NCBI GenBank assembly: GCA_963843555.1
Contig: CAWJKV010000007.1
Span: 160,001-224,000 of the forward strand
From: an uncultured Methanosarcinales archaeon
Lineage (GTDB): Archaea; Halobacteriota; Methanosarcinia; Methanotrichales; Methanotrichaceae
DNA length: 64,000 bases
Reading direction: 5' to 3'
Shown here in pieces: positions 1,416-23,213 of this stretch. Each line of letters starts with the position of its first letter. The first letter of the stretch is position 1. The translations under genes were made by a program, and so were the position numbers. The notes beneath the pieces are model-generated. The model had not been told where the DNA came from and searched no databases. It saw only the letters and a list, made by a program, of their open reading frames with translations.

Positions 1416-1438
1416 AATACCCTCCCTTAAATCCAATC

Positions 1439-6017: not shown

Positions 6018-6265
6018 TGTCTTCCCTGTGAGTAGCGAATACGCAGTTGATGGGGTTCCTCTATCTTTCTTGGCCTTGATTGCAAACTTACGTGGCTTCA
6101 GACAAACAGCATTGCTTTGGGCGGCCATTAAGGGAAAAATGCCCTACTCGCCTCATACATGGGCGAGCGGGTCGGGTAGCCAACCAGCTCAGTCGTTCTT
6201 AATAGCCTTGGCTTACCACCCTATCCTCCTGGACAATCTTATGTAGAAATGCCCAAACTAGTGAA

Positions 6266-6385
6266 TCATTTCTCTTCTTCTTTCTTGGCTTGATCTTGAG
6301 CTTTTGCCTCTTTTTTTGCTTCCTTTTTGTCCCTATGATGTTCAACGCCCTTTGCAGCTACTGCAGCTCTCACTAATCTTCCCAT
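6266..6385 (-). CDS. Small charged protein, 39 aa (MGRLVRAAVAAKGVEHHRDKKEAKKEAKAQDQAKKEEEK)
   Basis: Clean ORF read by hand, GGAGG upstream, directly downstream of TATA box and motif copy 1. Confidence 0.55.
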   Translation of the reverse strand: MGRLVRAAVAAKGVEHHRDKKEAKKEAKAQDQAKKEEEK

Positions 6386-6505
6386 GCTCAAATCCTCCAC
6401 ATAGTCTTAGTTATCAAAATCAGCCTCAACGAGATATCAAGTATGGCTGATTTGACGCTGAGAACTCTTATACCTTAAAGTATTTATAAACATTTAATCC
6501 TGACA

Positions 6506-6529
6506 CATAAAAGTATGAAAAATTATGAA
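6506..6529 (-). promoter_or_regulatory. Conserved 24-bp motif copy 1 (TTCATAATTTTTCATACTTTTATG)
   Basis: One of 5 near-identical copies; TTTATAAATA box follows on the minus strand at 6481-6490. Confidence 0.8.
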
Positions 6530-6734
6530 TCGTGAAGCCGTGGATATTTATAGGAATTTTATTATCTAATAAGGCTGTCGTTTCGGAGATGCAGCAGTCT
6601 TGATCACGTCTGCGGCAACTATGATTTCCATAGTCACCAGAAGGGATTTCTCAATTATGGATTCGTGCCGGCTTGAGAATCACAGCGCCTTTTCATATTT
6701 TCGAATGTTCGTGCTACACACCCGGCCCCGGGCC

Positions 6735-6835
6735 TACAGCTCTCAATCGAGTGTAGGGCGCCAAACGCCAAAGTTTTGCTGTTTGGTGCCCATTCTTCTC
6801 TTACTTCAGCTGTTACTTGTTTGCCAAGACCTGCT
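6735..6835 (-). pseudogene. Degenerate duplicate of the 3' end of the DszB-like gene
   Basis: Translates KQVTAEVREEWAPNSK, versus EQAAVEVLKEEWARKS at the end of the upstream gene. Confidence 0.4.
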
Positions 6836-6855
6836 CATTCTTTGCTTCCTCCCGA

Positions 6856-8022
6856 CTACCCGAGACGCAGACCCTCGGCTTCGAGCCCTCCTCCAGTGGG
6901 AAGCTTGCTCCAGCTCTTTCGGGCCCACTCTTCCTTGAGGACTTCAACCGCTGCTTGCTCCAGGAATTCCGGTCGTGCCCACTTATCCACATCGTAGTCG
7001 TTCTTGATGTAGCCGTGGCTGAGCATGAAATCCTTACCGATCTTAATGCACTGCATGTTCTGCGCACTGAGGCTTGGCACCATGTCGACGTGCTTGATGC
7101 CCTCATACGTATCCTCAGCGTCCAGGTAGAAGGTCTGTCGGTTGAGGATCGCTGCAGCGGCGTGCTTGTGCTCGTTGGCCCAGCGTCCGACCTTGATCAT
7201 GGCCTTCATGTAGGCGATGACGAGCTCGGGATGCTCATTCGCCATCACGTCGGTGCAGGTGATGACGGCAGGGGTATTGGCAACCTGTACAGTGAAGTCC
7301 GGGTACCTTGACAGGTCCTCGATCATCTTGATCTGCCCTGTCGCCTCCTGAAGATGCTGGAAAACCTTGCTCTGGGTATAGATGGCATCGACGACGCCAC
7401 CAAGCAGCGCCTTCTCCAACGGGCGGAAGGCCAGGTCGTGCTTGTGGTCGCGGCGCATCCACAGCTCAGACGGATTGTTCATCGGCGGTACCAGCATCTC
7501 GGGCTTGTCATACCAGTCATCTGGGTAGGGGAACTCCACGAGCTCGATATCGTCCATGGTCATATCGTTCAGCCTCAGCATATTCTCGATGCCCATATGT
7601 TCCTGGATGCGCCACCAGTCGTTCTTGATGGTGTTGAGGCTCTTCGAGATGCCGATCTTCTTGCCTTTCAGGTCCTTCATCCGGAAAATGTTGTCGCGGG
7701 CGCGCACCGCCATACAACCGCCTTCGTATACCCACGTCGCTCCCAGTAGCACTGTTCGGCGGATGTCCGCATGAACATGGATTGGTGGATACAGGCCGCC
7801 GAAGCGGATGAGGTTGTCGAGGTTGTGGATGTAATGCGGGTACCAATTGTTCTCGGGGGCATGGCGGAAGTAGGCGTACTCAACGCCGATCTTCTTGAAC
7901 TCCTCCCGGCACCACCCCAGCTCCTGATCAACGTTGTTGGCGGACACCATTGGGCAGTTGGTGAACCACACCTCTTTCCAGTTTAATGGTACTGTTGTCG
8001 ATACTCTTTGCACATCTGCCAT
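6856..8022 (-). CDS. DszB-like desulfinase / SsuA-fold substrate-binding-like protein
   Basis: N-terminal FTNCP and HNLDNLIRFGGLYPP resemble DszB YSNCP and RFGGEIPP; DLKGKKIG motif; no signal peptide. Confidence 0.7.
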   Translation of the reverse strand: MADVQRVSTTVPLNWKEVWFTNCPMVSANNVDQELGWCREEFKKIGVEYAYFRHAPENNWYPHYIHNLDNLIRFGGLYPPIHVHADIRRTVLLGATWVYEGGCMAVRARDNIFRMKDLKGKKIGISKSLNTIKNDWWRIQEHMGIENMLRLNDMTMDDIELVEFPYPDDWYDKPEMLVPPMNNPSELWMRRDHKHDLAFRPLEKALLGGVVDAIYTQSKVFQHLQEATGQIKMIEDLSRYPDFTVQVANTPAVITCTDVMANEHPELVIAYMKAMIKVGRWANEHKHAAAAILNRQTFYLDAEDTYEGIKHVDMVPSLSAQNMQCIKIGKDFMLSHGYIKNDYDVDKWARPEFLEQAAVEVLKEEWARKSWSKLPTGGGLEAEGLRLG

Positions 8023-8066
8023 AATTCATCTTCTCCTTTTATCTATTCTTTGGGTCTCAATTTTTT

Positions 8067-9806
8067 TTAATCTAAAGAACCAGGTACTATCTTCTCCTTC
8101 ATCAGCACTGAACGTGCCAGCATGCCCCCGGAGATGTTCTTGGCTTTGAAACCATTCTGCAGAAGTATGCGCGTCGCATAGTAGGCGCGCTGGCCGGAGC
8201 GGCAAAATACCAGTATATCGCGGTCTTTGGGCAGTTCGCCAAGGCGCATTCGGAGTTCATCCAGCGGTATGTTGCATGCGCCCGGCACATTCTCTACGGT
8301 GATCTCCTCGGGATGACGCACATCGAGCAGGAACCCGTCCTCTCCGGAATTCCAGTGGCGAAGCGGCATATCTCCCCGGAGTACATCGGCTGCAACCATC
8401 CCGGCGAAGTTAATGGCAGACTTGGCCATTCCGAACTGGGGCGCATAGCAAAGCTCAGATTCTTCCAGGTCATAAACCGTCAAGCCCATCTGGATGGCCA
8501 TGGCAATGACATCGATCCGTTTGTCCACTCCCTCCAGACCCAGTGCCTGTGCCCCGAGAACGCGTCCGTCTGATTTCCGGAAAATCACTTTCATCGCCAC
8601 CATCTTAGCATCCGGGTAATACCCTGCATGGGCATTGGGGAAGATGTAGATCTTTTCATAGTCCTTCTGGCCGAGCCGGATGAGCTGATTTTCGCTAATT
8701 CCTGTCCAGGCCACTGCACCTTCAAATACTCCGACGATTGAGGTTCCCTGGCTTCCGCGGAAACGGGAGTCACGCCCTGAGATCACATCGGCAGCGATTC
8801 GGCCCTCCCGGTTTGCCGGGCCTGCCAGCGGGATCAAAGACGATTCACCAGTCACAAAATCTTTGATCTCAACTGCGTCTCCAACAGCAAAAATGTCCGG
8901 ATTGCTGGTGCGCATGTGTTCATCCACGAGTATTCCTCCACGCTCACCGATTGTGATTCCGGCCATCTTTGCAAGGGCAGTCTCCGGACGCACGCCAATT
9001 GCCAGTATCACAATATCCGCAGGATGGGCCTTGCCGGATTTTGTGAGAACCTGGAGCGATCCGTCAGGAGATTTCTGGAATCCTGCGGCCCCATCGTTGA
9101 GTGCGAGCCGAACACCGTTCTTCTGAAGGTATCGATCAACGAAGCGCGACATCTCCGGATCAAGCCGCGGCAAGAGCTGCTCATGCTTATGGACAATCGT
9201 CACCTCAAGCCCTTGATGCATCAAGTTTTCAGCCATCTCGATGCCGATGAACCCTCCACCGATCACCACCCCGCGCATTGGTCTCTTCACTACCTGATAT
9301 CCAGTGTACGAATTCATCCCGGCTTGTTCCTGTTTATATTGTTCAATCCAGGCGCGTATCTCCCGAGCATCAGGCACGTACCTCACCCTAAAGATTCCCG
9401 GAAGATCGATACCGGGCAAATCCGGACGGACCGGAGCAGCACCGGGAGCCAATACGAGCTTATCATAGGATTCAGTGCTAACTTCGCCGGTCTTGACATT
9501 CTTCAGCTGCACTGTTTTCTGCGCTGCCGAGATCCCGACCACCTCACAGAGTGTCCGCACATCAATGGAAAACTGCTCATGGAACAGCTTTTCATCGGCT
9601 ACCAGGAGGCTTGATTCTTTTTCGATCACCCCTCCGCAATAGTAGGGCAATCCGCAATTGGCGAACGAAACATAGGTCCCTCGTTCCACCATGAGGATTT
9701 CTGCATTCTCATCCAGCCTGCGCAATCGTGCCGCACACGACGCACCACCGGCCACTCCGCCAACTATGACTACCTTCTTTCCCGTCTTCTTACCAACTGG
9801 TTCCAT
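8067..9806 (-). CDS. CoA-disulfide/persulfide reductase with C-terminal rhodanese domain (Npsr/CoADR-RHD type)
   Basis: GGVAGGAS FAD motif, SFANCGLP active Cys, GGGFIG, YAPQF, rhodanese FCRSGQR. Confidence 0.9.
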   Translation of the reverse strand: MEPVGKKTGKKVVIVGGVAGGASCAARLRRLDENAEILMVERGTYVSFANCGLPYYCGGVIEKESSLLVADEKLFHEQFSIDVRTLCEVVGISAAQKTVQLKNVKTGEVSTESYDKLVLAPGAAPVRPDLPGIDLPGIFRVRYVPDAREIRAWIEQYKQEQAGMNSYTGYQVVKRPMRGVVIGGGFIGIEMAENLMHQGLEVTIVHKHEQLLPRLDPEMSRFVDRYLQKNGVRLALNDGAAGFQKSPDGSLQVLTKSGKAHPADIVILAIGVRPETALAKMAGITIGERGGILVDEHMRTSNPDIFAVGDAVEIKDFVTGESSLIPLAGPANREGRIAADVISGRDSRFRGSQGTSIVGVFEGAVAWTGISENQLIRLGQKDYEKIYIFPNAHAGYYPDAKMVAMKVIFRKSDGRVLGAQALGLEGVDKRIDVIAMAIQMGLTVYDLEESELCYAPQFGMAKSAINFAGMVAADVLRGDMPLRHWNSGEDGFLLDVRHPEEITVENVPGACNIPLDELRMRLGELPKDRDILVFCRSGQRAYYATRILLQNGFKAKNISGGMLARSVLMKEKIVPGSLD

Positions 9807-9820
9807 GGTTGATCCCTCCT

Positions 9821-10867
9821 TTAGACCTCATTAAACTGGATGATCACTTTGATGTCGCCGGGTTGTCTCACGAGAGCCTGCTGGAAATTCTCCGGCTTCT
9901 CACGGCGGGTGATCAGGCGGTTCAGCCATGTCCGGTCCGATGCAGCCAGATTCTGACCCGCTCTATACCAGTGACGCTTGTTTGCATTCACGCTGCCGAC
10001 AATCAGGTTATTCTTCAGGACCACTGCTTTTGCGATGTCGCCCACAGCCCGACTTTGGACGCCGCCGGAGCCGACGCCCGTGAGACAGATGATCCCGCCC
10101 GATGCAACTTTCTGGATCGCGTCCCCAATCACCGATCCCACACCGGTGCACTCGACGATGATATCTGGATCGAAATCCAGATCCAGGACACTCCCGGTAT
10201 GATACGTCGCCCCCAGGGCATTGACGAGATCTGGCTTTGGTCCGGTGTCATTGCGATCGAGCACGTGGACATCAATGTTATTCGCTTTCAAACGGAGCGT
10301 CGCCAACATACCAATCGGCCCTGCGCCGGTCACCAGCGCGGTCCTGGGCTCCCAGAAGGCGCGTTGGCCAGCTCGTAAGACCTGTTCCAATGCCTTGGTG
10401 ATCACCGTCATCGGTTCGAGCAGCACGCCGAGGATGCCCAGGGAAGAGTCCACCTTGATGGCGTATTCGGGTTCGATCCGCCAGCGTTCCGACATAAATC
10501 CGTGGATTTCTTTGATTCCGCGCTCGGTGTACTGGCCGTTGGTGCACATGTCCCACTCGCCCACCGCACAGTTGGGGCAGGGAACAGGGTCCGGACGGCG
10601 GACGATGCCGACCACCAGGTCGCCCTTTTTGAAAGAACTGCGTGGCCCCGGATCGATGACGCGGCCGAGGGACTCGTGACCCAGCACCAGCCGGGACTTT
10701 CCAGGCGGCGCCCAGCCGTAATTCCCCGAGACGATGTCGACGTCCGTCCCGCAGACGCCGACAGCCACGGCTTCAACAAGGATCGAGCCCTCACTCTCAT
10801 CGGGCTCCGGGAAATCCTCGTAGCGTGCTGACCCTGGCTTCATAGGTTCTACAGTGATTGCTTTCAT
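9821..10867 (-). CDS. gdh: Zn-dependent glucose 1-dehydrogenase (MDR family)
   Basis: GVCGTD, LGHES, VRRPDPVPCPNC..WDMC, ERGI and GSVNAN motifs typical of archaeal-type GDH. Confidence 0.85.
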   Translation of the reverse strand: MKAITVEPMKPGSARYEDFPEPDESEGSILVEAVAVGVCGTDVDIVSGNYGWAPPGKSRLVLGHESLGRVIDPGPRSSFKKGDLVVGIVRRPDPVPCPNCAVGEWDMCTNGQYTERGIKEIHGFMSERWRIEPEYAIKVDSSLGILGVLLEPMTVITKALEQVLRAGQRAFWEPRTALVTGAGPIGMLATLRLKANNIDVHVLDRNDTGPKPDLVNALGATYHTGSVLDLDFDPDIIVECTGVGSVIGDAIQKVASGGIICLTGVGSGGVQSRAVGDIAKAVVLKNNLIVGSVNANKRHWYRAGQNLAASDRTWLNRLITRREKPENFQQALVRQPGDIKVIIQFNEV

Positions 10868-10920
10868 TCATGTAATCTCCTTGCACTTAACTAATCGAAT
10901 TGTTTTGCTTGCAGATTGTT

Positions 10921-12027
10921 TCAAGCACTTGATAGTTGGATACAAACCGGCGTTGGCACTGCGGCCACGTGCCCGGTTGCCTGCAGCATCCCGGAATCCT
11001 GATCGATCCAGAATGTGACCACGGTGTCCGTATCCTGGTTTGCCACAAGCATCAGTGCACCTGATGGATCGATGATGAAAGCGCGGGGACCTGCTCCCTG
11101 CGTCAATTCATGCCCGACAACCGACAACAGGCCGGTCTCGGGGTCGACGGCATAGATCACCAGGCTATCATGCCCCCGATTTGAGGCGTAGACAAAGCGA
11201 CCGGAAGGCGCAACCATGATCTCCCCGCCCAGGTTCTGGCCTGTGAAGTCGTAGGGGATGGTGGAAATGGTCTGTAACGCCTCAAATGTGCCCTGATGCT
11301 CCTGGTAGCGGCAAACTGTGACCGTGGATTGTAGTTCGCTGATGACGTAGGCGAAGGGTCGGTGTGGATGAAATGCCAGATGGCGCGGGCCTGTGCCGGG
11401 CGGCAGCTCTGTCCAGGGAGGATCGGCAGGGCTTAGCGTGCCCCGCTCCCTATCGAGGCAAAACGCCATCAGCCTGTCCGTGCCCAGGTCAACCGCCAGT
11501 ATGAAGCCGCCATCGGGGCTTGGCACAACCATATGGGCATGCGGGCTTTCCTGACGTTCGGGATTGGGCCCGGAACCGGAAAACTGAACTGTATCGGTTG
11601 CCTCTCCCAGGCTCCCGTCCTTTAGGATCGGCAAAACGCATATGTTGCCTGTCTCATAGTTGGCCACCAGGCAATAGCGTCCTGCAGGATCAATGCTTGC
11701 GTAGCAGGGAGCCGTGCCATGGGTTGATTGTTCATTCAGGTAGCTCAGATGCCCTGTTACCGGATCGATGGCAAAGACGCTCAAAGTCCCGTTAGGGGCT
11801 TCGCTTTTATAGAATTCGTTGACGGCGTACAGACGGTTTCTGTCCGGCCCCAGGATCAGAAACGAGGGATTGACCGTTCCGGCACCGGCTACAGTGGCGG
11901 CGTAGGTCAACTCACCTGAACTCAGATCCAGGTGATAGATGTAGATACCTTCGGCTTTGCCGTCAACAAATGACTCGCGCCGTGTATATGTTCCAATGTA
12001 GGTGATGATGCGATCTGAACTTACCAT
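10921..12027 (-). CDS. pgl: Lactonase family protein (6-phosphogluconolactonase, beta-propeller Pgl/YbhE type)
   Basis: YIGTYT, RQESPHAH, GPRHLAFHP and YASNRGHDS motifs. Confidence 0.88.
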   Translation of the reverse strand: MVSSDRIITYIGTYTRRESFVDGKAEGIYIYHLDLSSGELTYAATVAGAGTVNPSFLILGPDRNRLYAVNEFYKSEAPNGTLSVFAIDPVTGHLSYLNEQSTHGTAPCYASIDPAGRYCLVANYETGNICVLPILKDGSLGEATDTVQFSGSGPNPERQESPHAHMVVPSPDGGFILAVDLGTDRLMAFCLDRERGTLSPADPPWTELPPGTGPRHLAFHPHRPFAYVISELQSTVTVCRYQEHQGTFEALQTISTIPYDFTGQNLGGEIMVAPSGRFVYASNRGHDSLVIYAVDPETGLLSVVGHELTQGAGPRAFIIDPSGALMLVANQDTDTVVTFWIDQDSGMLQATGHVAAVPTPVCIQLSSA

Positions 12028-12073
12028 ATCTGCAGCCTCCTTATGAAGAATTGCATATGAATCTAATCAGGAA

Positions 12074-13009
12074 TCAGATGGGGTGAATCCTGCTCGTTCT
12101 CCTCTCATTGGCTATGTATTCGGACTTTCCATATGGATGTCCGCCAAATCCATGGCGAATTATGGCTATTGCTCTGGCTGCATCGCTATCCTTATTTCTG
12201 GACCTGAAAAGCTCAATGACCGATTGGGTAATTACCGGCAGAGGAATCTCTTTTTCGATACCTTCCTGAACCAGCCAGTTGACCTCTCCTGTGTCCTCGA
12301 TGTAGTCAGGAACTTCTTTAAGATCCTTGAAGTCTCCCAGACCCTTTTCCATCAACTCCACCAGCCAGCTCCTTATAACTGATCCATGTGACCAGACTCC
12401 AAAGATGTCACGCATATTCAGGTCGAAATCGGCGTGTTGCAGAAGCTCTACCCCTTCGCCTATGGCCTGAAGCATTCCAAACTCAATTCCGTTGTGCACC
12501 AGCTTAACAAAATGCCCGCTCCCCGGTTTTCCCGTGTGCAGATAACCTCCTTCAACTGCCAGAGCCTTCAAGATCGGCTCGCAGATCACAGCTGCTTCGG
12601 GCCTTCCACCAATCATGAAACAGGCTCCGTGACGTGCACCATCAATTCCACCACTGGTGCCGCAATCAACGAAATAGATACCTTGCTTCGAGATCTCCTC
12701 TTCTCTGCGGATGGAATCTTTGTAGTAGGAGTTGCCTCCATCCAGGATGACATCACCTTTCTCCAGGTGGGGAATTAGCTCTTTCAAAACCAGGTCAACT
12801 GTAGGTCCTGCTGGAAGAGATAGAAATATGACTCTAGGGTGGCTTAAATTTGCCAAAAAATTTGTGTAATCCTCTACTACTAATACCCCATTTTGGGTCA
12901 ATTCAGGCTTTTGTCCCCTCGCCTTTCCCACGATCTTGATGCCCTTTTCCACACCGTGGAGGGCGATGTTCGCACCCATTTTGCCAAGACCGATAATTCC
13001 AAGTTCCAT
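12074..13009 (-). CDS. gnd: Short-type decarboxylating 6-phosphogluconate dehydrogenase
   Basis: GLGKMG, DGGNS, DCGTSGG, GHFVKLVHNGIEFG and RHGFGGH motifs. Confidence 0.9.
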   Translation of the reverse strand: MELGIIGLGKMGANIALHGVEKGIKIVGKARGQKPELTQNGVLVVEDYTNFLANLSHPRVIFLSLPAGPTVDLVLKELIPHLEKGDVILDGGNSYYKDSIRREEEISKQGIYFVDCGTSGGIDGARHGACFMIGGRPEAAVICEPILKALAVEGGYLHTGKPGSGHFVKLVHNGIEFGMLQAIGEGVELLQHADFDLNMRDIFGVWSHGSVIRSWLVELMEKGLGDFKDLKEVPDYIEDTGEVNWLVQEGIEKEIPLPVITQSVIELFRSRNKDSDAARAIAIIRHGFGGHPYGKSEYIANERRTSRIHPI

Positions 13010-13076
13010 CTCCAGTACATCCAGATATTATCAAATGTTGATATTTCTGGTAATTTATAGATATTTGAGATGCAAT

Positions 13077-13100
13077 CATAAAAGTATGAATAGTTATGAA
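13077..13100 (-). promoter_or_regulatory. Conserved 24-bp motif copy 2 (TTCATAACTATTCATACTTTTATG) upstream of gnd operon
   Basis: Identical to copy 3; followed by atctcaaa and CTATAAAT. Confidence 0.85.
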
Positions 13101-13209
13101 GGCTCCAACGCTCCTGGGAGACAGGCTCATTGGGGCTGGCTTTATTGGTTTCCAAAGACCGCTGGAATCACCATCATACGGCAAAGACATCCGCGATTTC
13201 GTTAATTAG

Positions 13210-13815
13210 CTATGCCTCCTTATCGCCAGTGAGATGGGGAGAGAAAGAGTAGTATAATTGCGCCGCAATATACCCGGCAAGAGCGATCTTTGGAGAGATT
13301 AATGCAAGGATCATTGCAAAGCCAGTAATAGCGGCGGCAAATTGCCGCCTCCTCTTCAAAGCATTAAGCTCGCCTCTTGCCGATTCATCGACGAGGATAT
13401 GGGGAGTGGTGACTGCTGAACGTATGATTGTGTTCATCATAGCCGATGCCGCCAGTAGATTTAAACCGTAGATTACCACCGGGAAAGCTGAATAGAGGCT
13501 ATTGATGTGAGTAGCCATGAACTTCGTAGTGAATGGAAGCAGCGACACGAAGAACAGCATTAAAAGAGTAAATCGGTATGTCCGGGGGGTCTCTTGTTTG
13601 GTCAAATAGGTAATTTCAGAATGCGCCAGCCAAAAGCTACCGATAAATGCAAAGCTAATGATGTACGCGATGAAATCAGGCCATAATGGCATGAGCGCTG
13701 TAATATCTTCGGATACCTCTGGTATAGGAAGATCGAGCACCAGTAATGTGATGACTATTGCAAACACGCCATCGGCGAATGCATCTAAACGACCTTTGGG
13801 CAGGGATTTAATCAT
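13210..13815 (-). CDS. TMEM175 family K+ channel, copy 1
   Basis: RLDAFADGVFAIVITLLVL signature, FWLAH, LLPFTT. Confidence 0.88.
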   Translation of the reverse strand: MIKSLPKGRLDAFADGVFAIVITLLVLDLPIPEVSEDITALMPLWPDFIAYIISFAFIGSFWLAHSEITYLTKQETPRTYRFTLLMLFFVSLLPFTTKFMATHINSLYSAFPVVIYGLNLLAASAMMNTIIRSAVTTPHILVDESARGELNALKRRRQFAAAITGFAMILALISPKIALAGYIAAQLYYSFSPHLTGDKEA

Positions 13816-13889
13816 TGTTATCAACCTCACACTAGAACCTGCTTCTTCCTTCTGGCTTTTGCCCTCTCGCCTTTCCCATCTTCATCCCT

Positions 13890-15155
13890 TCATCTATCTT
13901 TTGCATCAGCTCCGGTCGTGACTGTGGCGAACTGCCGTGTCCCTCCGTCGCGGTCCGAGAGGGCGCTGATCAGGATCGTTTCCTCCGGTCTGGGCGTGTC
14001 TGGCAGTTGGACGTGCACGATCACGCTCGCCGATTCGCTGGGATTCAGAACTGGTGTCCGTCCCGGGATAAGGCTGGCTGACCAGGGCGGAGGAGCCGAA
14101 GGCCAGGTGAAGTCCTCGGCCATCAGGGCGTAATCGGTAGGCTGCGTGTCCTGGTTGGTCACCGTGACGCTGTATGATACCACGCTGCCAGGTGATCCCT
14201 GGCCCGTCTGGTTGGCCGGGCTGAGGTCGATCCCAGGATCTGACTGTAGCACGACTTGAGGATCGTCGCCCTGCTCAGGTCCCCACACCTCTCGCCAGGG
14301 ACCCGAATCGGGTTTCAGGTACAGGTCAAAGAAAGTCAACATCTCGCGGCGCGCGATCTCCAATTGTTCCGCACGCGGCAGCGAGCCTGAGTCGCAGAAT
14401 GGGATGTTGCTGTCCAGGAAGCCACAGTGACACCCTCCCTGGATGAGCAATAATTGGCGCGGTGGCCGGGCCACGGTGTACATCGCCTGCGTGTTGGTCT
14501 GCCAGTCCACGATGTCGTCCTGATCGCCCGTAATCAGCCGCACTGGCGCGCTGATGTTCGGCATTTGGGCGATGGCCGAGGGATTGGTCTCGGCAGCAGC
14601 CAGCGTGATCAGAGCCCGCACGCGCGAGTCGGCTGCCGCGGCCAGGATGCTCGAGCCGCCGCCCATCGAATGACCGGCTATGCCAAAATGGGCGGTGTCC
14701 ACCTGCCCGAAGAGCCATGAATCGGGATTCGCGTTCTCCGACTCCAAAAAGTCAAGGCTGTAGCGAAAGTCTTCTGCGAATCCCTGGTGGCTGGGGAACA
14801 AGAAGGTCATGTACGACATGGGAGCGATCACCAGGTAGCCATGGGATGCCAGGTGTTCCAAGGTGCTGCGGTAGGAGTTCGGATGCACCGTGAAGCCGTG
14901 GCCGAAGGTTACAGCCGGATAGGGTGCGCTGCTGCCATTGTACGGCGCGCCGTCGCCTGCGGTCGTGGCGGGATAGTACAACTGGGATGTGAAGGTCTGG
15001 CCGTTGGGGCGGAGAATGGTCACGACCTGAAGGCCAGCGCCAAAGGGACCTGGATCGGCCAGATCGGCGTCTACGGCTGTGCTCTGCCCCAGCACCCCCA
15101 GCAGCAAGGTGAGCAAGCAGGTCGTAGAAATCCAAACCGAGTTGTGCGTGGACAT
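13890..15155 (-). CDS. Secreted alpha/beta hydrolase (chlorophyllase/cutinase/PETase-like fold) with C-terminal Ig-like domain
   Basis: Signal peptide; HGF oxyanion region; HLASHGY; GHSMGGG nucleophile; GDQDDIV; GGCHCGF; beta-rich tail. Confidence 0.75.
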   Translation of the reverse strand: MSTHNSVWISTTCLLTLLLGVLGQSTAVDADLADPGPFGAGLQVVTILRPNGQTFTSQLYYPATTAGDGAPYNGSSAPYPAVTFGHGFTVHPNSYRSTLEHLASHGYLVIAPMSYMTFLFPSHQGFAEDFRYSLDFLESENANPDSWLFGQVDTAHFGIAGHSMGGGSSILAAAADSRVRALITLAAAETNPSAIAQMPNISAPVRLITGDQDDIVDWQTNTQAMYTVARPPRQLLLIQGGCHCGFLDSNIPFCDSGSLPRAEQLEIARREMLTFFDLYLKPDSGPWREVWGPEQGDDPQVVLQSDPGIDLSPANQTGQGSPGSVVSYSVTVTNQDTQPTDYALMAEDFTWPSAPPPWSASLIPGRTPVLNPSESASVIVHVQLPDTPRPEETILISALSDRDGGTRQFATVTTGADAKDR

Positions 15156-15410
15156 GGAGTCACCTAGAACTTGTTATTGAAGGCAGTAAAGACCAGATTT
15201 GATACTGGAAGTACTTCAGAGCTATTCTGACTTGCATTGTCATGACTGGTTGGTTTAGTGAATTGGTACTTAATGGATTCTCTTGCGAGAGGGATTTGGC
15301 GGATAAAGTAGTCTTGCCGAGGTTATCTCTGACAAACTCGTCAAAGCTGGACATGCCAATGTTAATGAAGGATCGCCCATGAAGTTGTATGAAGAGCTAA
15401 ACGCGAATCT

Positions 15411-16469
15411 TCAAAATCCGGACAATGATGTTGTCATCAACTCTTGGTCCCCCTTTACGCTCACCTGAATGGAAGAGCTTCGTTTTAACATCTCCTTCAT
15501 CCAAATAGAATCCTTCACCATGCCTGCCCTGCTTACCGGATCATAATACTCAAACGACCACGATCCATTATTCTGGGAGGCATTTACGGCTACAGCGCAA
15601 GCCCTCCACCGGAAAAGCACAACCTTTGGGTCAGAATCAGCGAGATGCAAAGCCTCTTTCAGATCCGAAGCTGAATTTGGATCTCCAGAGTCCCGTTCTA
15701 CATGCAGTCGAGGGTAAGAAGCAATGTATGACATATTGTTGCTGAGAGAGTTGTAGCTATAGACCTGGAAACTGCTTTCATTCTTGTTCAGAATATTCCA
15801 TTGAAAAAGGCTCCAATCGGGAAAGATCTCAAAATCTCCTTTAAGGTTTCCCGCAATATTTCCATGATTTTCGAGAGCAAGAGCCCTCTCTTTTCCCTCC
15901 ACTCGCGCGCCTCCGACCACCAATATCATGATCAGAAACAGCACTAAGAGCTTGTTATTTGTGTTTCGGGAAACGGATTTCCTTCCAAAGAAACCTCTGA
16001 TTAACCACAGGGCTATGCACACGCTGGACACCAAGATTATGATCTCATAATGGAAGAGCAGCTCCGCTGAGAATCTTGCTGTATCCAAGGGATAAAGCAG
16101 GGGCACTCCCTTAGTGATGAGATAATCCAGGAATAGGTGCATAAGGACTCCGGCGAACGCCAGAGCTGCCACTGGCCAGGAGAGGCTGAAATCAATTCCA
16201 GTCCAGCGCATGAAGATGTCTCTGGCCGGTGGTCGCGAGATCAGGAGCATAGCTACCAGAGCTGTCAAGGAACCGAATATCAATGAATGGGTTATCCCCC
16301 GATGTACCAGGAGAAGATCTGGCGAGGGAAAGATTATTGCGAGCCAGATGATGAAGACATCCAGGTCCGGGGCCACTCCTCCGATTACAAAGGCCGCTAG
16401 CAGCTTTCTATCCAACTTGAAGGAGCTTCCCAAAAGATACGGCAACACCGCATGAGAAATTATGTCCAT
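15411..16469 (-). CDS. YdjM-like membrane metal-dependent hydrolase
   Basis: SH..APDLD..HRGITHS..HLFLD motifs and TM helices. Confidence 0.8.
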   Translation of the reverse strand: MDIISHAVLPYLLGSSFKLDRKLLAAFVIGGVAPDLDVFIIWLAIIFPSPDLLLVHRGITHSLIFGSLTALVAMLLISRPPARDIFMRWTGIDFSLSWPVAALAFAGVLMHLFLDYLITKGVPLLYPLDTARFSAELLFHYEIIILVSSVCIALWLIRGFFGRKSVSRNTNNKLLVLFLIMILVVGGARVEGKERALALENHGNIAGNLKGDFEIFPDWSLFQWNILNKNESSFQVYSYNSLSNNMSYIASYPRLHVERDSGDPNSASDLKEALHLADSDPKVVLFRWRACAVAVNASQNNGSWSFEYYDPVSRAGMVKDSIWMKEMLKRSSSIQVSVKGDQELMTTSLSGF

Positions 16470-16885
16470 TCAATTCTCTGGGCTTGATATCTCTTAATCA
16501 TTCATTTTCCGATTGATGGATTAATTTCCGCTATACCTTTCAAATAACATCTTGGATACATATAAATGCTTTGCAGTAGCAGTCAACTTTTCGGCATCCA
16601 CTTGAATCGCTTCCTATGACTTGGCCGGGGACTGGCTCGCTTCACGCAAAAGTCGTCACTTATGTCAAGCGGTCACGGCTCGTTTAAGCCTTTCTAATGC
16701 GAATACTGTCGCTTAAAAGGAGATGATGGTCCAAGTAAAATCCCTCATTTGAGTTTTTCGAAACATTTATTTACCATTACTCAGATACCCAAACTCTAGC
16801 ATTATCGTCAGATTGGCAAGCAATCAACTGGATAGACTGAGGGAATATGCGACGAAAACGGTTTCTGAGATGGAGTTGAATCGCG

Positions 16886-17971
16886 ATGACGGTAACCTCT
16901 GATATGATGATAGTATACGCCGTAATCATAAGTCGCTTCTTGTTGCCTCTTGCCATTCCGCGATTTCCTCTTCCTGCAGTCGTGGCCTGCATGCTGTTGG
17001 ATGCAGCAGACTACCAAATTTTCAACTTCTTCACAAGTCTGCCTATTGAAAGCCTGGAATTCTATCAAGGCTATGATAAATCTCTTGATATCTATTATTT
17101 GGGCATAGCCTATATTTCCACGCTTCGCAATTGGACAAATCCCTTCGCGTTCAAGCTTGACAAGTTCCTCTTCTTTTACCGTCTTGTAGGTGTGGCCCTC
17201 TTCGAGCTGACTCAGATTAGAGCAGTTCTGCTCATCTTTCCCAACACCTTCGAGTATTTCTTTATCGCAATCGAGGCCTTCCGCATGAGGCAAGACCCAC
17301 GGAAGCTCACCAAGAGATTATTGATTATCATTGCAGCATTCATCTGGATCTACATCAAGCTCCCACAGGAGTTATGGATTCATATCATCCAGCCAAATTA
17401 CCCCGATCTGATCACTGATAATCCATGGACTATATTGGTTGCAGCAGTATGGTTTGCAGGAATAGCAGCATTTGCATGGTGGCTGCTGAAAGAGAAGCAG
17501 GCCGGTAGGCAGGTTTCATTCAAGGCGGATCCCATTCCCCAGGATTTAGCATTAAAAGCCGAGCAAAGAGGCACGACTTCGAAGTCCAATCGCTTCCTCG
17601 ATGCAGCGCTCATAGAAAAGATTGCAATGATCTCGCTTCTCAGCGTTATCTTTGCCCAGGTACTCCCGGATGTAAAGGCCAGCGGCATCCAGATCGCCAT
17701 CGGAGTGGCTTTATTAGTGATAGTTAACACTGCACTCAGCCACTGGCTTTCCAGGCGCGGGACTGAGTGGAAGTCCATTTTACAGGAGTTCGTCGTCATG
17801 GCGCTGGTGAATTTCAGCCTGATCCTGGCAGCTGACTTTCTGCTGCCCAGATTCGATGGCTCAATCAATCTTAGCACCGCGTTGTTCTTTGTCCTGCTCC
17901 TGACTCTGAATGTTACCCTCTATGACAGATATCACCAGATATATGTGCACCGATTTGCAGACAGTGGATAG
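16886..17971 (+). CDS. Multi-pass membrane protein of unknown function
   Basis: 361-aa hydrophobic ORF with LDAAD...YDKSLD motif. Confidence 0.7.
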   Translation: MTVTSDMMIVYAVIISRFLLPLAIPRFPLPAVVACMLLDAADYQIFNFFTSLPIESLEFYQGYDKSLDIYYLGIAYISTLRNWTNPFAFKLDKFLFFYRLVGVALFELTQIRAVLLIFPNTFEYFFIAIEAFRMRQDPRKLTKRLLIIIAAFIWIYIKLPQELWIHIIQPNYPDLITDNPWTILVAAVWFAGIAAFAWWLLKEKQAGRQVSFKADPIPQDLALKAEQRGTTSKSNRFLDAALIEKIAMISLLSVIFAQVLPDVKASGIQIAIGVALLVIVNTALSHWLSRRGTEWKSILQEFVVMALVNFSLILAADFLLPRFDGSINLSTALFFVLLLTLNVTLYDRYHQIYVHRFADSG

Positions 17972-18203
17972 TTGAGGTTGCGACGGCGGACGGCGGAACC
18001 CTCTGCAAGCTACGGGATAGTCCTTAAGTTCGATTTCCCTGACCAACCCAGCCTGCAGTTCGAACTACCCTCCCAGTAAGGTCGTTATTATTTGCGATTA
18101 TGATTCCGATAATGGCGGTTCCTAATCCCATCGTAACCTTGGCGGATGAGTTGCGCTCATGTGCTCGGTAGTATACGATTTACAGCAACATGACACGCTA
18201 CCG

Positions 18204-18227
18204 TTCATAACTTATCATACTTCTATG
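18204..18227 (+). promoter_or_regulatory. Conserved 24-bp motif copy 5 (TTCATAACTTATCATACTTCTATG) upstream of crystallin gene
   Basis: Matches consensus; GTATTAAT box at the same spacing. Confidence 0.75.
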
Positions 18228-18287
18228 ATTCTTTCTTAAATAAGTATTAATTTGATGGAATTCCAATAAGTCTGATTAGGTGATAAA

Positions 18288-18656
18288 ATGAAATTCACTG
18301 GAAAAATAGCCATGGGAATACTAATCGCCGCAGTTGCGCTAATTGCGGTTGGCATCGCCCAAAACGAGACTGCAACAGAGATTCCCGAAGCAATAGTATT
18401 TTCAGGTACTATGATGGAGGGTAATCACAGACATGTCTTTATGAGTATACCAGATTTGACTGTTGGCTCAAATGAGTGGAACGATGACATCTCATCGATT
18501 GTAGTCATTTCCGGGGAATGGACTTTCTTTGAGGCTCCTCTAGGCGCCGGGGAAGTGCCAAATCCATCCGTTACATTGGGGCCCGGAGTTTATCCTGATG
18601 TAGCGAAAGAGAAAATACCGGACAATTCTATCTCACAAATCCGTTTAGAAGCCTAG
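18288..18656 (+). CDS. Secreted single-domain betagamma-crystallin-like protein
   Basis: Signal peptide; WNDDISSIVVISGEWTFFE and LGPGVYP..PDNSISQIR Greek-key/Ca-site motifs. Confidence 0.75.
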   Translation: MKFTGKIAMGILIAAVALIAVGIAQNETATEIPEAIVFSGTMMEGNHRHVFMSIPDLTVGSNEWNDDISSIVVISGEWTFFEAPLGAGEVPNPSVTLGPGVYPDVAKEKIPDNSISQIRLEA

Positions 18657-18959
18657 ACGAAAAAAGCAGGTAAGGCCTAAGCAGGATCCTTGGGGTCCAG
18701 GCTTTATCTGTTCTATCCTTTTTCCTTTGAGAGTGTAATAGAAAGCATCGATGAATCCTGATTCGCACCCAAAACTATGAAAACGATTTCAGGGAAACAT
18801 ATTTTGATATGGTTGAAGGCTGCTGAATAGCTAGGGATCTGGATCCCATCATAAAAGTAGCCCGACTCTCTCTTGAGCGTTGACTGAGCAATAAACAAGA
18901 TCAAGAATCGGGCCTTCTCACCATTGCCACCACTCTGTCTCCAGATTTTAGCGATTTAA

Positions 18960-19226
18960 TCTTTCTTCTGTTTCTGCGACTTTCTTTTGAGTCATGGCAA
19001 GGCGTTTTTAAAGGCTCATTCTCGGCATGAGCCTGTCCGAGCAGCCTCTCAACTCCGCAATCCTTGCCTCGTACTTGTACCTCTTGCCATTGCCGCTAAA
19101 CGCTTTTTCGGGATTCTCGCCCAATTCATCTCTTGAAGTCCCGGTCATAGCGCCGCCTCGTCTTCTTCATGTACTTCCCTCCATGAGTTGATGTTACTTA
19201 ACTCATTTTCCACTGGGCGGGGTTCA
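18960..19226 (-). mobile_element. IS3-family remnant (internally deleted orfA and probable left end)
   Basis: From ATG 19170: MKKTRRRYDRDFK / ENPEKAFSGNGKRYKYEARIAEL / RLLGQAHAENE. TGAACCCCGCCC at 19226 resembles IS3-type ends. Confidence 0.6.
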
Positions 19227-19800
19227 CTCCAAAGGAGTAGTATAATTGCGCCGCAACATACCCGGCAAGAGCGATTCTTGGAGAGAATAACGCAAAGATT
19301 ATCGCACAGCCAGTAATAACGGCGGCAATTTGCCGCCTCCGCTTCAAAGCATTAAGCTCGCCTCTTGCCGACTCATCGACGAGGATATCGGGAGTGCTGA
19401 CTGCTGAACGTATGATCGTGTTCATCATAGCCGATGCTGCCAGTAGATCTAACCCGTAGATTATTACCGGGAAAGCTGGATAGGGGCCATCGATGTGAGT
19501 AGCCATGAACTTCGTAGTGAATGGAAGCAGCGACACGAAGAACAGCATTAAAAGAGTAAATCGGTACGAACGGGGGGTTTCTTGTTTGGTCAAATAGGTG
19601 ATTGAAGAATGCGCTAGCCAAAAACTACCGATAAATGCAAAGCTTATGATGTAAGCGAAGAAATCAGGCCATAATGGCATAAGCGCTGTAAAATCTTCGG
19701 ATGCCTCTGGTATGGGTAGATCGAGCACCAGTAACGTGATGACTATCGCAAACACGCCATCAGCGAATGCATCTAAACGACCTTTGGAAAGGGATTTCAT
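19198..19800 (-). CDS. TMEM175 family K+ channel, copy 2
   Basis: Close paralog of 13210..13815 with a different C-terminus after LYYSF. Confidence 0.88.
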   Translation of the reverse strand: MKSLSKGRLDAFADGVFAIVITLLVLDLPIPEASEDFTALMPLWPDFFAYIISFAFIGSFWLAHSSITYLTKQETPRSYRFTLLMLFFVSLLPFTTKFMATHIDGPYPAFPVIIYGLDLLAASAMMNTIIRSAVSTPDILVDESARGELNALKRRRQIAAVITGCAIIFALFSPRIALAGYVAAQLYYSFGVNPAQWKMS

Positions 19801-19990
19801 TATGTTATCCACTTCAATGAGCAATAGGCCGGAGGCTGTACCTTTTGGCATGGGAATTCCAGTGCAATCATCTTTGCATGACTCATCTCATCCCTCCCAA
19901 ACAATGGTCACAATTGTAAGCGTCACAAACAATGCTTGGGCAGCTCCCAGCAATGCCAGGAGTGCCAAGATCGTCATGATAAATGACAGC

Positions 19991-20512
19991 CTACTTCTTC
20001 TTTTTTGCCTCTGCGAGCGCTGCACCCATCAAGATTATCGCTTCAGGTTGAAGCAGACCCTGCGAGATCAAGACCCCGTTCGAGTTTCGAAGAGCTTCTT
20101 TTATGCCCTTTGCCCATAAATGCTCAACGAGCATTATAAGCGCGGAGCTATTATTGGGGATCTTGTCTGCCCCTAAATTCAAGATATCGTCTATTGAATA
20201 ACCAAAGCTCCCATCAGCCGCCAATTCTGCACCAGCCTCTGCACCGGCTTTCGCCCCTTCAATCCCGCCTGCGCCCAAACCAAGAAGTGCACCAACCGCG
20301 GCCCCCAGTTTAATAACCTCATCTTTTCCTAAATCTGTGCCTTCAATAGAGGTGATATTTCCTTTCGCATCCTTTGTTACGAAAAGGTAGTCAATTAAAC
20401 GAATGACGCCCTTCTTCTTGGCATCATTTAGAGCTGGAAGGATCTCTCCACTGAACTTGTTACCAGGAAACCCGATAACAAACATCTGTATTGGTCCATA
20501 CATCACTGTCAT
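19991..20512 (-). CDS. DUF1269/DUF6325-like protein with glycine-zipper segment
   Basis: GPIQMFVIGFPG, IRLID, GAAVGALLGLGAGG, SSALIMLVEHLWA. Confidence 0.7.
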   Translation of the reverse strand: MTVMYGPIQMFVIGFPGNKFSGEILPALNDAKKKGVIRLIDYLFVTKDAKGNITSIEGTDLGKDEVIKLGAAVGALLGLGAGGIEGAKAGAEAGAELAADGSFGYSIDDILNLGADKIPNNSSALIMLVEHLWAKGIKEALRNSNGVLISQGLLQPEAIILMGAALAEAKKKK

Positions 20513-20593
20513 GATTCATTCCTCTTATTTCTAATTCCACTAATAACAATTATACAAGCTTTTTTTGAGATATATAGCTTTTTGAGATTCCTG

Positions 20594-20617
20594 CATAAAA
20601 GTATGAATAGTTATGAA
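20594..20617 (-). promoter_or_regulatory. Conserved 24-bp motif copy 3 upstream of DUF1269-like gene
   Basis: Identical to copy 2; followed by atctcaaaaa and CTATATAT. Confidence 0.85.
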
Positions 20618-20712
20618 GCATGAGGCAATAAGATCATATTTAACAGGACGATCGGAGACCTGAAGATCACCGGCTGGCTGACATCTTTTATATGATCGGC
20701 ATGCTGTAGACC

Positions 20713-20736
20713 TTCATAATTATTCATACTATTATG
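20713..20736 (+). promoter_or_regulatory. Conserved 24-bp motif copy 4 (TTCATAATTATTCATACTATTATG) upstream of arylsulfatase
   Basis: Divergent partner of copy 3; followed by gcatctcaaaaa as in copy 2. Confidence 0.85.
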
Positions 20737-20846
20737 AAAGCATCTCAAAAATCTCTATCTACTTCAGTAGTTAACATTGAAATCCTATTAGAATCATGTC
20801 CAAAGAATACGAAAAAATTTGAAATAAAGATGCAAGGAGAATCACA

Positions 20847-23213
20847 ATGGCAACAATCAAGACTTATAAAGACGGAGCGCCGTTCACCGGCGTTATCGGA
20901 CGTACCATAGAGGAATCCTCGCCTGCCTGGCCGGAGCCCCCGCGCTCCGCAGCAGGTGCGCCCAATGTCATCTTCTTCGTGCTGGATGATGTCGGCTACG
21001 GGCAGTTGTCGAGCTTCGGCGGGCTGGTCGAGACTCCCGTGCTTGACAGCCTGGCCAAAAGAGGCCTGCGTTATACCAACATGCATACCACGGCTCTCTG
21101 CTCTCCGTCCCGAGGTTGCATCCTGACCGGCCGGAATCACCACTCGCTCGGGCTTGCATCAATCACCGAGACCTCCACCGGCTACCCCGGCTACAACGGA
21201 ATCATGCCTTTCGATAAGGGCATGCTCAGCGAGATGCTGCTGCAAAAGGGCTACAATACCTTCTTTGCAGGGAAGTGGCATCTCTCGCCTCCTGAACACG
21301 AGACGCCGGCCGGCCCCTATGATCGCTGGCCGCTTGGCCGTGGCTTCGAGCGTTTCTACGGCTTCCTGGGTGGCGACACAAATCAGTGGTACCCGGAACT
21401 GGTCTACGACAATCACTCGGTCGAGCAGCCCTCGCAGCCTGAGGAAGGTTACCACCTGAGCATCGACCTGGCTGATAAAGCCATCCAGTTCATTATGGAT
21501 GCGCATGTCAACGCGCCGGACAAACCTTTCTTCCTGGAATACTCAACAGGCGCCGGTCATGCGCCGCATCACGTTCCAAAAGAGTGGGCAGACAAGTACA
21601 GGGGTAAGTTCGACATGGGCTGGGACGAGTACCGCAAGATCGTCCACCAGCGCCAGATTGAGATGGGTATCGTTCCCAAAGGGACCGAACTTTCTCCGCA
21701 TGACCCAGATATTCCCGTCTGGGATACGCTATCACCAGATGCGAAAAGACTCTTTGCCCGAATGATGGAGGTCTTTGCTGGATTTGTAAGCTTCACCGAT
21801 CATCATTTTGGGCGCGTCGTCAAATTCCTCGAAGAGATCGGCGAGCTGGAGAACACTCTGATCATCGTCATCTCCGACAACGGTGCCAGCGCTGAAGGTG
21901 GCCTGGTCGGATCGCTCAATGAGATGTGCTTCTTTAACAATGTGGCTGAATCGGTTGAGGATAACCTCAAGATGATCGACAAGCTGGGCGGGGTGGAGCT
22001 TTTCAATCACTATGCCTGGGGCTGGACAAATGCAGGTAACACACCGTTCCGCCGCTGGAAACGTGAGACCTACCGGGGCGGCAGCACCGATCCCTGTATA
22101 GTCTTCTGGCCTAAAGGTATAAAGGCCAGGGGAGAGGTGCGCTTGCAGTATGCGCATATCATCGACCTTGTCCCAACGGTCCTGGAGGCACTTGGTCTGG
22201 AAGCTCCGACCAACATCCGGGGCGTGGCCCAGGCACCTATTGAAGGCGTAAGTTTTGCCCATACCTTTAACGACAATGCTGCGCCCAGCCATCACCACAC
22301 CCAGTACTTTGAGATGTTCGGTCACCGCTCCATCTACCATGACGGCTGGCGGGCGGTCTGCCCGTGGCCAGGCACGAGTTTCGTCGAGGCCGCCAAGAAG
22401 GGCCGTCATTTCGGCTCTGTCATCACTAACGAAGTTCTATTGGATATCGAACAAAACGACTGGGAGCTATACAACGTGGCCGAAGACTATTCCGAATCCC
22501 ACAACCTGGCCGCCACGCACCGCAATAAATTGATTGAAATGATAGGTCGATGGTATACTGAAGCGGGCAAGTACAATGTGATGCCGATAGACGGCAGTGT
22601 CATCCAGCGTTTAACTGTGGAACGTCCGACGATATCCAGACCAAGGGACAGGTTTGTCTTCTACCAGAACGGGTCTCCAGTTCCATTTGCTGCAGCGCCC
22701 AAGACATACAACCGCCCATGGTCGATCACAGCCGAAGTAGTGGTCCCAGAGGGTGGCGCCGAGGGCGTTCTAATCGCCCAGGGCGGCCGGACTGGCGGAT
22801 ACACCTTCTTCGTGAAGGATAAGCGACTCCACTTCCTTTACAATTTCCTCAACCGCGATAAATTCTGGCTGCATTCCAACGAGATGGTTCCTGAGGGTGA
22901 AGTCGAACTCCGCTACGAGTTCGAGCCTACCGGAAAACCGGATTTTGCGAAAGGGAAAGGTGTGCCGGCCCGAGGTCAGCTTTACATCAACCGCAAGCTG
23001 GCTGCAAACATCGACATGCCCCATACAGTTCCAATCATGTTCGGGACAGAAGGCCTGACCTGCGGCTACGATGGCGGCGCTCCCGTTGCCCCAGAGGAGT
23101 ACAGCGATACATTCCCCTTCACAGGGACTATCAGCCGGGTCACCCTGGACCTATCAGGAGAGTTGATCAAGGATGCTGAAGCCGATCTGAAGGTGGCAAT
23201 GGCCCGGCAGTAA
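20847..23213 (+). CDS. Cys-type arylsulfatase with C-terminal LamG-like domain
   Basis: LDDVG, LCSPSRG (CxPxR formylglycine motif), GKWHL, SDNG; no signal peptide. Confidence 0.92.
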   Translation: MATIKTYKDGAPFTGVIGRTIEESSPAWPEPPRSAAGAPNVIFFVLDDVGYGQLSSFGGLVETPVLDSLAKRGLRYTNMHTTALCSPSRGCILTGRNHHSLGLASITETSTGYPGYNGIMPFDKGMLSEMLLQKGYNTFFAGKWHLSPPEHETPAGPYDRWPLGRGFERFYGFLGGDTNQWYPELVYDNHSVEQPSQPEEGYHLSIDLADKAIQFIMDAHVNAPDKPFFLEYSTGAGHAPHHVPKEWADKYRGKFDMGWDEYRKIVHQRQIEMGIVPKGTELSPHDPDIPVWDTLSPDAKRLFARMMEVFAGFVSFTDHHFGRVVKFLEEIGELENTLIIVISDNGASAEGGLVGSLNEMCFFNNVAESVEDNLKMIDKLGGVELFNHYAWGWTNAGNTPFRRWKRETYRGGSTDPCIVFWPKGIKARGEVRLQYAHIIDLVPTVLEALGLEAPTNIRGVAQAPIEGVSFAHTFNDNAAPSHHHTQYFEMFGHRSIYHDGWRAVCPWPGTSFVEAAKKGRHFGSVITNEVLLDIEQNDWELYNVAEDYSESHNLAATHRNKLIEMIGRWYTEAGKYNVMPIDGSVIQRLTVERPTISRPRDRFVFYQNGSPVPFAAAPKTYNRPWSITAEVVVPEGGAEGVLIAQGGRTGGYTFFVKDKRLHFLYNFLNRDKFWLHSNEMVPEGEVELRYEFEPTGKPDFAKGKGVPARGQLYINRKLAANIDMPHTVPIMFGTEGLTCGYDGGAPVAPEEYSDTFPFTGTISRVTLDLSGELIKDAEADLKVAMARQ

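Follow-up and report, generated by a model that had tools for sequence, protein, structure and literature searches.

Archaeal activators bind just upstream of the B recognition element (BRE), according to the available portions of PMC5512572, and the regulation of archaellum genes by EarA is of this kind; in the accessible parts of PMC5512572, PMC10665913 and PMC10117864, EarA promoters carry four short sites of the form TACATA directly upstream of the BRE, and recruitment of transcription factor B (TFB) is proposed. In Methanosarcina mazei and Methanococcus, the nitrogen genes glnA, amtB-glnK and nif belong to a different described system, in which, as far as the available sections of these sources go, NrpR is a repressor and NrpA is nif-specific (bioRxiv 10.1101/2020.05.06.080432, PMC11456600, PMC9765008). 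In this study, we analysed a 64,000-nt stretch of DNA (hereafter the window) from an uncultured archaeon of the family Methanotrichaceae, namely positions 160001-224000 of contig CAWJKV010000007.1 (C7) in the genome that we label G000 (82% complete, 2.68 Mb), in which a preliminary description had reported five intergenic copies of a 24-bp motif and attributed them to one activator. We find that the five copies are real and form part of a 49-bp promoter module belonging to a larger Methanotrichaceae regulon, which is apparently without published description and resembles archaeal regulation from upstream of the BRE. The motif is not the stand-alone unknown that it was first taken for; it is one base shorter than the promoter module of the Methanotrichaceae glnA and glutamate-synthase genes.

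The five 24-mers lie at 6506-6529 (-), 13077-13100 (-), 18204-18227 (+), 20594-20617 (-) and 20713-20736 (+), on the positions and strands first given for them, and a search with their consensus, allowing up to three mismatches, returned exactly these five matches and none in each of 100 shuffles. All five are intergenic and directed toward a gene, and the distances originally given also hold: the start codon follows the end of the box by 120, 67, 60, 81 and 110 nt, within the 60-120 nt reported, and the TATA box by 17 nt. The five copies are, however, not the complete set, as three quarters of the genome-wide matches lie beyond the window. A position weight matrix (PWM) built from the window copies gave 20 matches above 24 bits in G000 and none in three block shuffles. 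Fifteen of the 20 cluster in a 46-kb island (C7:134,614-180,713), ten of these preceding the window. A BRE and TATA box follow in register at 17 matches and shifted by one base at one, and are absent at two. When 18 sites were compared pairwise, identity averaged 0.84 within the box and 0.72 within BRE/TATA, whereas the 60 nt upstream gave 0.25, the shuffled value. Segmental duplication, which would have undermined the proposal of a shared site, was rejected on this ground, since the flanks upstream of the box are unrelated, and the five longer BLAST matches among the sites lie downstream of the box or begin at it.

The geometry of the module is also maintained outside this genome. Of 72 metagenome loci, we read 68; among their 71 box matches, 46 had a BRE and TATA box at one distance and none at any other, such that the site lies directly upstream of the BRE in all 46 promoter-bearing cases, as in activator sites of the EarA, Ptr2 and TFB-RF1 type; the other 25 matches are mostly on AT-rich contigs. 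The metagenome sites represent 38 distinct 48-mers, and the boxed loci contain the same gene set in shuffled order. These data support the initial proposal of one shared transcription-factor site with fixed geometry to BRE and TATA, and the module is almost certainly a genuine factor-binding site. Among 105 genomes of Methanotrichaceae (the family in all counts below), the box with its BRE edge occurs in three: G000 with 16 sites, G088 (97% complete) with five and G078 (68% complete) with one. An exact scan across GTDB gave four matches, one of them in the family.

Placing the register of half-sites, BRE and TATA by consensus, we describe the module as four TTCATAA-like half-sites (H1 to H4) at 0, 10, 19 and 29 bp, followed by a BRE (consensus AAATAnC) and a TATA box (consensus TATAAATT). 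The repeated heptad (TTCATAA or its complement) is close to a palindrome and is oriented forward, forward, reverse and forward in the island sites. Repeated half-sites, including an inverted one, had been recognized at the outset; the uniform 10-bp phasing then proposed does not hold, since the steps are 10, 9 and 10 bp. Likewise, ATCTCAAA is shared by three copies as reported, but not at the BRE position. Because most of the conserved (A/T)TCTCAA precedes the BRE in this register, we read it as the fourth half-site, which is TTCTCAA-like and overlaps the BRE by two bases (positions -7/-6). The BRE retains an A at -6 in 16/16 sites and at -3 in 15/16, and the TATA box varies in a minority. Among 263 BRE/TATA-like strings in G000, H4 accompanies only 12, nine of which also have the upstream pair. 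The 6-nt spacer is near shuffled identity, whereas the half-sites are conserved.

The glnA promoter, which ranked 21 in the first PWM scan of G000, is the same module with one additional base between H2 and H3. We refer to the island arrangement, with a 4-nt spacer and a 9-bp H2-H3 step, as the short form, and to that with a 5-nt spacer and a 10-bp step as the long form. H1, H2, H3, H4, BRE and TATA are alike in 24 distinct glnA promoters. The long form occurs in 71/104 family genomes versus 1/196 other genomes of the class, where the lone match (G239) is surrounded by genes without nitrogen function, and the motif is found in 0/134 Methanosarcinaceae. At 25 of the 29 long-form family loci that were read, glnA lies downstream. 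The promoter of the glutamate-synthase (GOGAT) operon carries H2 to H4 in the same register, and half-site pairs were found upstream of glnA (25/30), amtB (30/30) and nifH (21/29) at loci of the genus, compared with 0/30 for nifH of another family, 0/29 for an MreA-family gene and 17/1715 for G000 genes. Triples with 10+10 bp steps occur at five intergenic places only: upstream of glnA, amtB, a glutamate-synthase-like gene and a formate/nitrite transporter gene, and at one other. The two spacings are divided strictly, with 5 nt in 62/62 glnA/GOGAT sites and 4 nt in 12/12 G000 and 4/4 G088 island sites; 39 metagenome sites were recovered with a 4-nt-spacer pattern and are thus no test of this split. 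The exception is the GOGAT promoter of G000 itself, which reads with a 4-nt spacer, possibly through assembly error, since this assembly has many broken frames. H3 has its central A in 16/16 island sites versus 9/24 glnA promoters, the island being nearer consensus. The island module and the nitrogen promoter of Methanotrichaceae are very probably of common origin.

Several further arrays of this unit were seen. The fifth 10+10 triple (G000 C6:32191-32227) lies between genes that, by sequence inspection, are likely those for phosphoenolpyruvate synthase and moeA. Five direct half-sites in 10-bp steps precede the formate/nitrite transporter gene (G000 C12:74390-74436, L281), an 8-bp unit containing TCATAA is repeated in tandem at G000 C14:99602-99793, and a TCATAA array in G078 (L042:5162-5210) adjoins a small winged helix-turn-helix (HTH) gene and a transposase. 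Outside the family, one nifH promoter contains a TCATA repeat, which was set aside for lack of conservation (0/30 exact lattice pairs).

The NrpR operator is of the type GGAA-N6-TTCC, a pattern used here in a form widened from the loci. The box is unlike it and does not read as an NrpR operator. Genes for NrpRI and NrpRII are present in G000, and the pattern appears in few promoters of the genus Methanothrix (glnA 2/30, amtB 1/30, nifH 0/29; 3/89 overall). Within Methanosarcinaceae it was found in 3/3 and 4/8 promoters of two sets and 0/30 of a third, and is therefore not universal there either.

The preliminary description placed the activator gene outside the window, and the likely binder is indeed encoded elsewhere, on contig C16. 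This candidate, a 182-aa protein (G000 C16:27592-28140), is one of three ribbon-helix-helix (RHH) matches in G000; its N-terminal domain matches PF01402 (RHH_1) at 34.3 bits against a cut-off of 20.5, and its nearest solved relative is CopG (PDB 2cpg, E 0.005). The regulator is present in 61/65 Methanotrichaceae genomes versus 0/155 others. Genes for this protein are often found next to nif, amtB or glnA: in 6/6 genomes read of genus g21 a paralogue is adjacent to amtB, in three of them with nifH on its other side, and is itself preceded by half-sites; in G085, G086 and G097 the main copy borders the glnA-GOGAT operon at its end, with a single gene intervening in G062; and G035 has an extra copy flanked by glnK and gltB. 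G000 and the nearly complete G088 each have a single copy, and no island-specific paralogue was seen in either. In the structural model (pLDDT 73), the C-terminal domain resembles H-NOX, Bet3, YslB, BcsD and DmpR with Z of 7-8, and Foldseek returned the same folds at E of about 0.003-0.01; the best structural match is a designed protein (Z 10.6). The modelled domain is likely a ligand-binding one and may be V4R/H-NOX-like. On balance, we favour the view that the RHH family binds the island form.

Other candidate binders were considered. Because half-sites of mixed orientation 4-5 nt apart recall AbrB, the search turned to beta-strand binders; the AbrB-domain proteins were set aside, the sole multi-domain one sitting behind phosphate-uptake genes. 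Proteins first taken as 'EarA-like' score as MreA family and are present in 77/77 family genomes, which makes them uninformative, and a double-HTH candidate for NrpA proved to be an HTH-kinase hybrid. Beside the RHH gene, two small features were observed. A conserved small open reading frame (ORF) of about 40 aa (G000 C16:28339-28467, L294) lies back to back with it in several genera. In G117, a long-form module (C22, L271, about 1400-1539) faces away from the RHH gene; the roughly 100 nt that it faces are non-coding, contain a C-rich stretch and might encode a small RNA under nitrogen control.

The island also encodes a 1194-aa protein with multiple PAS domains and no kinase domain; in both G000 and G088, its gene and a boxed promoter stand back to back. 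Of the 105 family genomes, only these two, which are also the ones rich in short-form sites, have its C-terminal part; four distinct metagenome contigs that bear the box have it as well, and the protein ends in a strongly conserved tail. A likeness of this tail to the H-box motif of kinases was unsupported. A predicted complex of the RHH dimer with the PAS protein scored 0.42 (runs 0.48, 0.42 and 0.00) against 0.00 for the best control, with a contact agreement of 0% and a partner pLDDT of at least 62, and so gives weak support for an interaction; the mark used for such predictions was reached by 116/157 solved and 2/215 mismatched pairs, with 18 of the solved pairs and both passing mismatches at scores of 0.60 or less. 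The single-sequence model of the C-terminal part was poor (pLDDT 41.6), and an Atlas search with the protein returned PAS clusters only. Participation of the PAS protein in regulation is a tentative suggestion. A second kinase-less multi-PAS gene (G000 C17:11596-14460) lies outside the island with no short-form box match beside it.

Our model, to which we give about an even chance, is that the module is a short sibling of the nitrogen promoter, bound by the RHH regulator, which probably activates transcription through contact with TFB. RHH dimers would occupy one half-site after another, whichever way each is oriented, along one face of the helix. With the last half-site abutting the BRE, the RHH protein could contact TFB and aid its loading onto the BRE. 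The V4R/H-NOX-like domain would sense an effector, most likely a signal of nitrogen status. The 9-bp step would set apart a further class of promoters that only the stress-type island uses, and this class may require the multi-PAS protein as a co-factor. We read the factor as an activator because its fixed geometry and position fit known activators, as presented in the accessible parts of PMC5512572 and PMC10665913, and we consider this sign of regulation likely.

Several observations weigh against this model. The genes of the island are not those of nitrogen assimilation; the main RHH copy is surrounded by housekeeping genes in 7/7 further genomes read and likewise at 25 loci read from the genus, where no nitrogen gene lies within 1.5 kb of it. 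Two candidate regulator families were profiled, and any family-specific gene would share the distribution of the RHH family; with G000 82% complete, another factor could also be absent from the assembly. RHH proteins are mostly repressors, H4 overlaps the BRE by two bases, and most copies of BRE/TATA are near consensus. The V4R/H-NOX assignment depends on a middling Z of 8.0 (root-mean-square deviation 3.6, 95 residues aligned), and G078 has a short-form site but no PAS match, in a genome of 68% completeness. Finally, the strict spacing split is not required by a flexible single binder and would be explained by a separate factor. The broader scheme, in which an RHH/V4R activator replaces NrpR/NrpA in Methanotrichaceae nitrogen assimilation and a one-base deletion in the glnA promoter gave one lineage a stress regulon whose short form is read only with the multi-PAS protein docked on the activator, is speculative, and we regard it as unlikely to hold as a whole.

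The same RHH binder could act with the opposite sign, repressing by covering the BRE edge and leaving upon a change of effector, comparable to NrpR in other methanogens. The position of H4 over -7/-6, the A kept at -6 and -3, the near-consensus TATA box in most copies and the fact that CopG is a repressor would all suit a repressor, yet three of the four half-sites lie upstream of the BRE, the distance to the BRE is invariant in the 46 metagenome sites, several TATA boxes are poor, and known methanogen nitrogen operators in the loci examined sit downstream of TATA; we therefore consider repression improbable. An alternative of similarly low probability is that a distinct factor, specific to the island, recognizes the short form, with the nitrogen promoter merely ancestral to it and another signal (oxygen, drying or redox) entering through the PAS protein. 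This would account for the strict 4-nt versus 5-nt split, for an H3 nearer consensus in the island than in glnA, for the PAS protein tracking the short form, and for targets that include HSP20, a universal stress protein, a CMD protein, channels and two tetraether synthases. It is harder to reconcile with half-sites and BRE/TATA otherwise identical to those of glnA, with the single RHH-family copy in G000 and G088, and with the 4-nt spacer of the G000 GOGAT promoter (if not an error); moreover, no DNA-binding domain was found among the island proteins scanned.

It is quite improbable that the binder is of another known type, whether MreA-family, NrpA-like, EarA-like or NrpR. The EarA site TACATA is one base from TTCATA (available part of PMC10665913), NrpA binds repeats upstream of the BRE (available part of bioRxiv 10.1101/2020.05.06.080432), and G000 has four MreA-family genes in addition to NrpRI and NrpRII. 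However, the motif is absent from the 134 Methanosarcinaceae genomes, where NrpR, NrpA and MreA were described, none of these types has a nitrogen-gene neighbourhood in the loci read, and MreA appears without an identified motif in the accessible portion of PMC3419521. Least probable of all, to a degree that we consider very small, is that duplication or a mobile element dispersed the module as a promoter cassette, with no factor binding its upstream part. Several targets are paralogous, the sites are strongly clustered, and two promoter pairs have a stretch of 80-122 nt in common that starts at the box and runs downstream, as such spread would produce; against this, the half-sites are kept while identity in the flanks upstream and in the 6-nt spacer is close to the shuffled value, the same module recurs across genera amid reshuffled genes, and one promoter keeps its BRE/TATA without the box that its orthologues have.

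Within the window, copy 1 of the module spans 6481..6529 (-), with H1-H3 at 6529-6504, a degenerate H4, a BRE at 6495-6489 and TATA at 6488-6481. The GH63/glycogen-debranching operon was originally named as its target, but the first gene behind it is a 39-aa basic, lysine/alanine-rich microprotein ORF (6266..6385, -) without a Pfam match, and the GH63 frame begins about 140-250 nt beyond that ORF, which makes control of this operon by copy 1 conjectural. Two broken GH63 copies and glycogen-debranching genes occupy 186..6128 (-), 3' of the microprotein, with which they may be co-transcribed; the second GH63 copy runs past the window start. Several metagenome contigs have ORFs resembling the microprotein behind the box. 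Frame breaks interrupt both GH63 copies, whereas the G088 homologue is intact (907 aa), which points to assembly error or decay, as do the nif genes on G000 C11, likewise in pieces. Copy 2 (13052..13100, -; H1-H4, BRE 13066-13060, TATA 13059-13052) precedes a gene run at 6856..13009 (-) that begins with 6-phosphogluconate dehydrogenase, lactonase and glucose dehydrogenase and continues with a CoA-disulfide-reductase-like protein with a rhodanese domain and an NMT1/SsuA-like protein. Copy 3 (18204..18252, +; BRE 18238-18244, TATA 18245-18252) lies ahead of a beta/gamma-crystallin-domain protein (18288..18656, +). Copies 4 (20569..20617, -) and 5 (20713..20761, +) are back to back, the former leading into a DUF6325/DUF1269 gene and a TMEM175 channel gene (19198..20512, -) and the latter into a sulfatase gene (20847..23213, +). 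The weak TATA box had been assigned to copy 4; the poorest is that of copy 5, TCTATCTA. Rfam gave no matches in positions 1-30000 of the window, the box itself lying upstream of TATA, and scans for sigma-70 promoters (25 vs 18.3) and terminators (15 vs 18.0) were at chance level.

Across G000, the genes behind the box include those for DUF1269/DUF6325 proteins, a universal stress protein, a CMD protein, sulfatases and the TMEM175 channel, together with the glucose dehydrogenase-lactonase-6-phosphogluconate dehydrogenase run, the crystallin-domain protein and both tetraether-synthase (Tes) genes of G000; HSP20 and SHOCT genes are found farther along the runs behind boxed promoters. On inspection of DUF1269 homologues at 21 loci of other genomes of the genus, the module was absent, suggesting that DUF1269-type genes were recruited to the box in one lineage. 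The two Tes homologues (G000 C2:2942-4519, L005, and C7:145828-147168, L002) are 95% identical and both behind short-form boxes, as is the Tes homologue of G078. At C5:195570 (-), C5:236089 (+) and C7:141135 (+) in G000, the BRE/TATA string or a paralogous layout is kept and the box is lost or altered; orthologues of the first retain it. Tetranucleotide use is atypical in the first island half (G000 C7:130000-158000), with 2/87 segments more atypical, and no tRNA gene was found near it.

A literature search found no description of the motif or of the RHH family; figures and supplements were outside its scope, and a similar published NrpA or FilR1 site is conceivable. No motif was found in the available part of the FilR1 paper (PMC3991700). 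The search likewise found no mapped regulator site for Methanothrix-type archaea. The present work puts forward a concrete site and a candidate protein identified by name, as well as two promoter classes that occur naturally and differ by one base. If the broader, speculative scheme is correct, one factor serves two regulons distinguished by half-site spacing. The results suggest nitrogen control of another kind than that of the NrpR/NrpA model, in archaea that produce much of the methane formed from acetate, and a route by which a stress regulon (chaperones, channels, glucose oxidation, sulfatases and two tetraether synthases) can arise through re-spacing of an existing promoter.

Among RHH regulators, NikR provides a comparison for the candidate. 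Like CopG/NikR-type regulators (PDB 2cpg), the candidate combines an N-terminal RHH domain with a likely ligand-binding domain, but its C-terminal domain looks V4R/H-NOX-like. Bacillus subtilis AbrB also recognizes pentamers as half-sites, which are separated by 4 or 5 bp and may be direct, inverted or everted (available portion of PMC3738160); it differs in its pentamer and fold and, in the same portion, is a global repressor with no fixed promoter distance. The long form shares its targets (glnA, amtB-glnK and nif) with NrpR/NrpA, from which it is set apart by the modes of action given at the outset. The EarA regulon itself was rejected as an explanation, since the half-site is TTCATA rather than TACATA and the targets are not archaellum genes. 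Even so, the EarA promoters, with four short sites directly upstream of the BRE, are alike in layout; EarA, which acts on archaellum genes, is a winged-HTH protein, whereas the module described here has an RHH candidate, half-sites in both orientations on a 10-bp lattice, and nitrogen- and stress-type targets.

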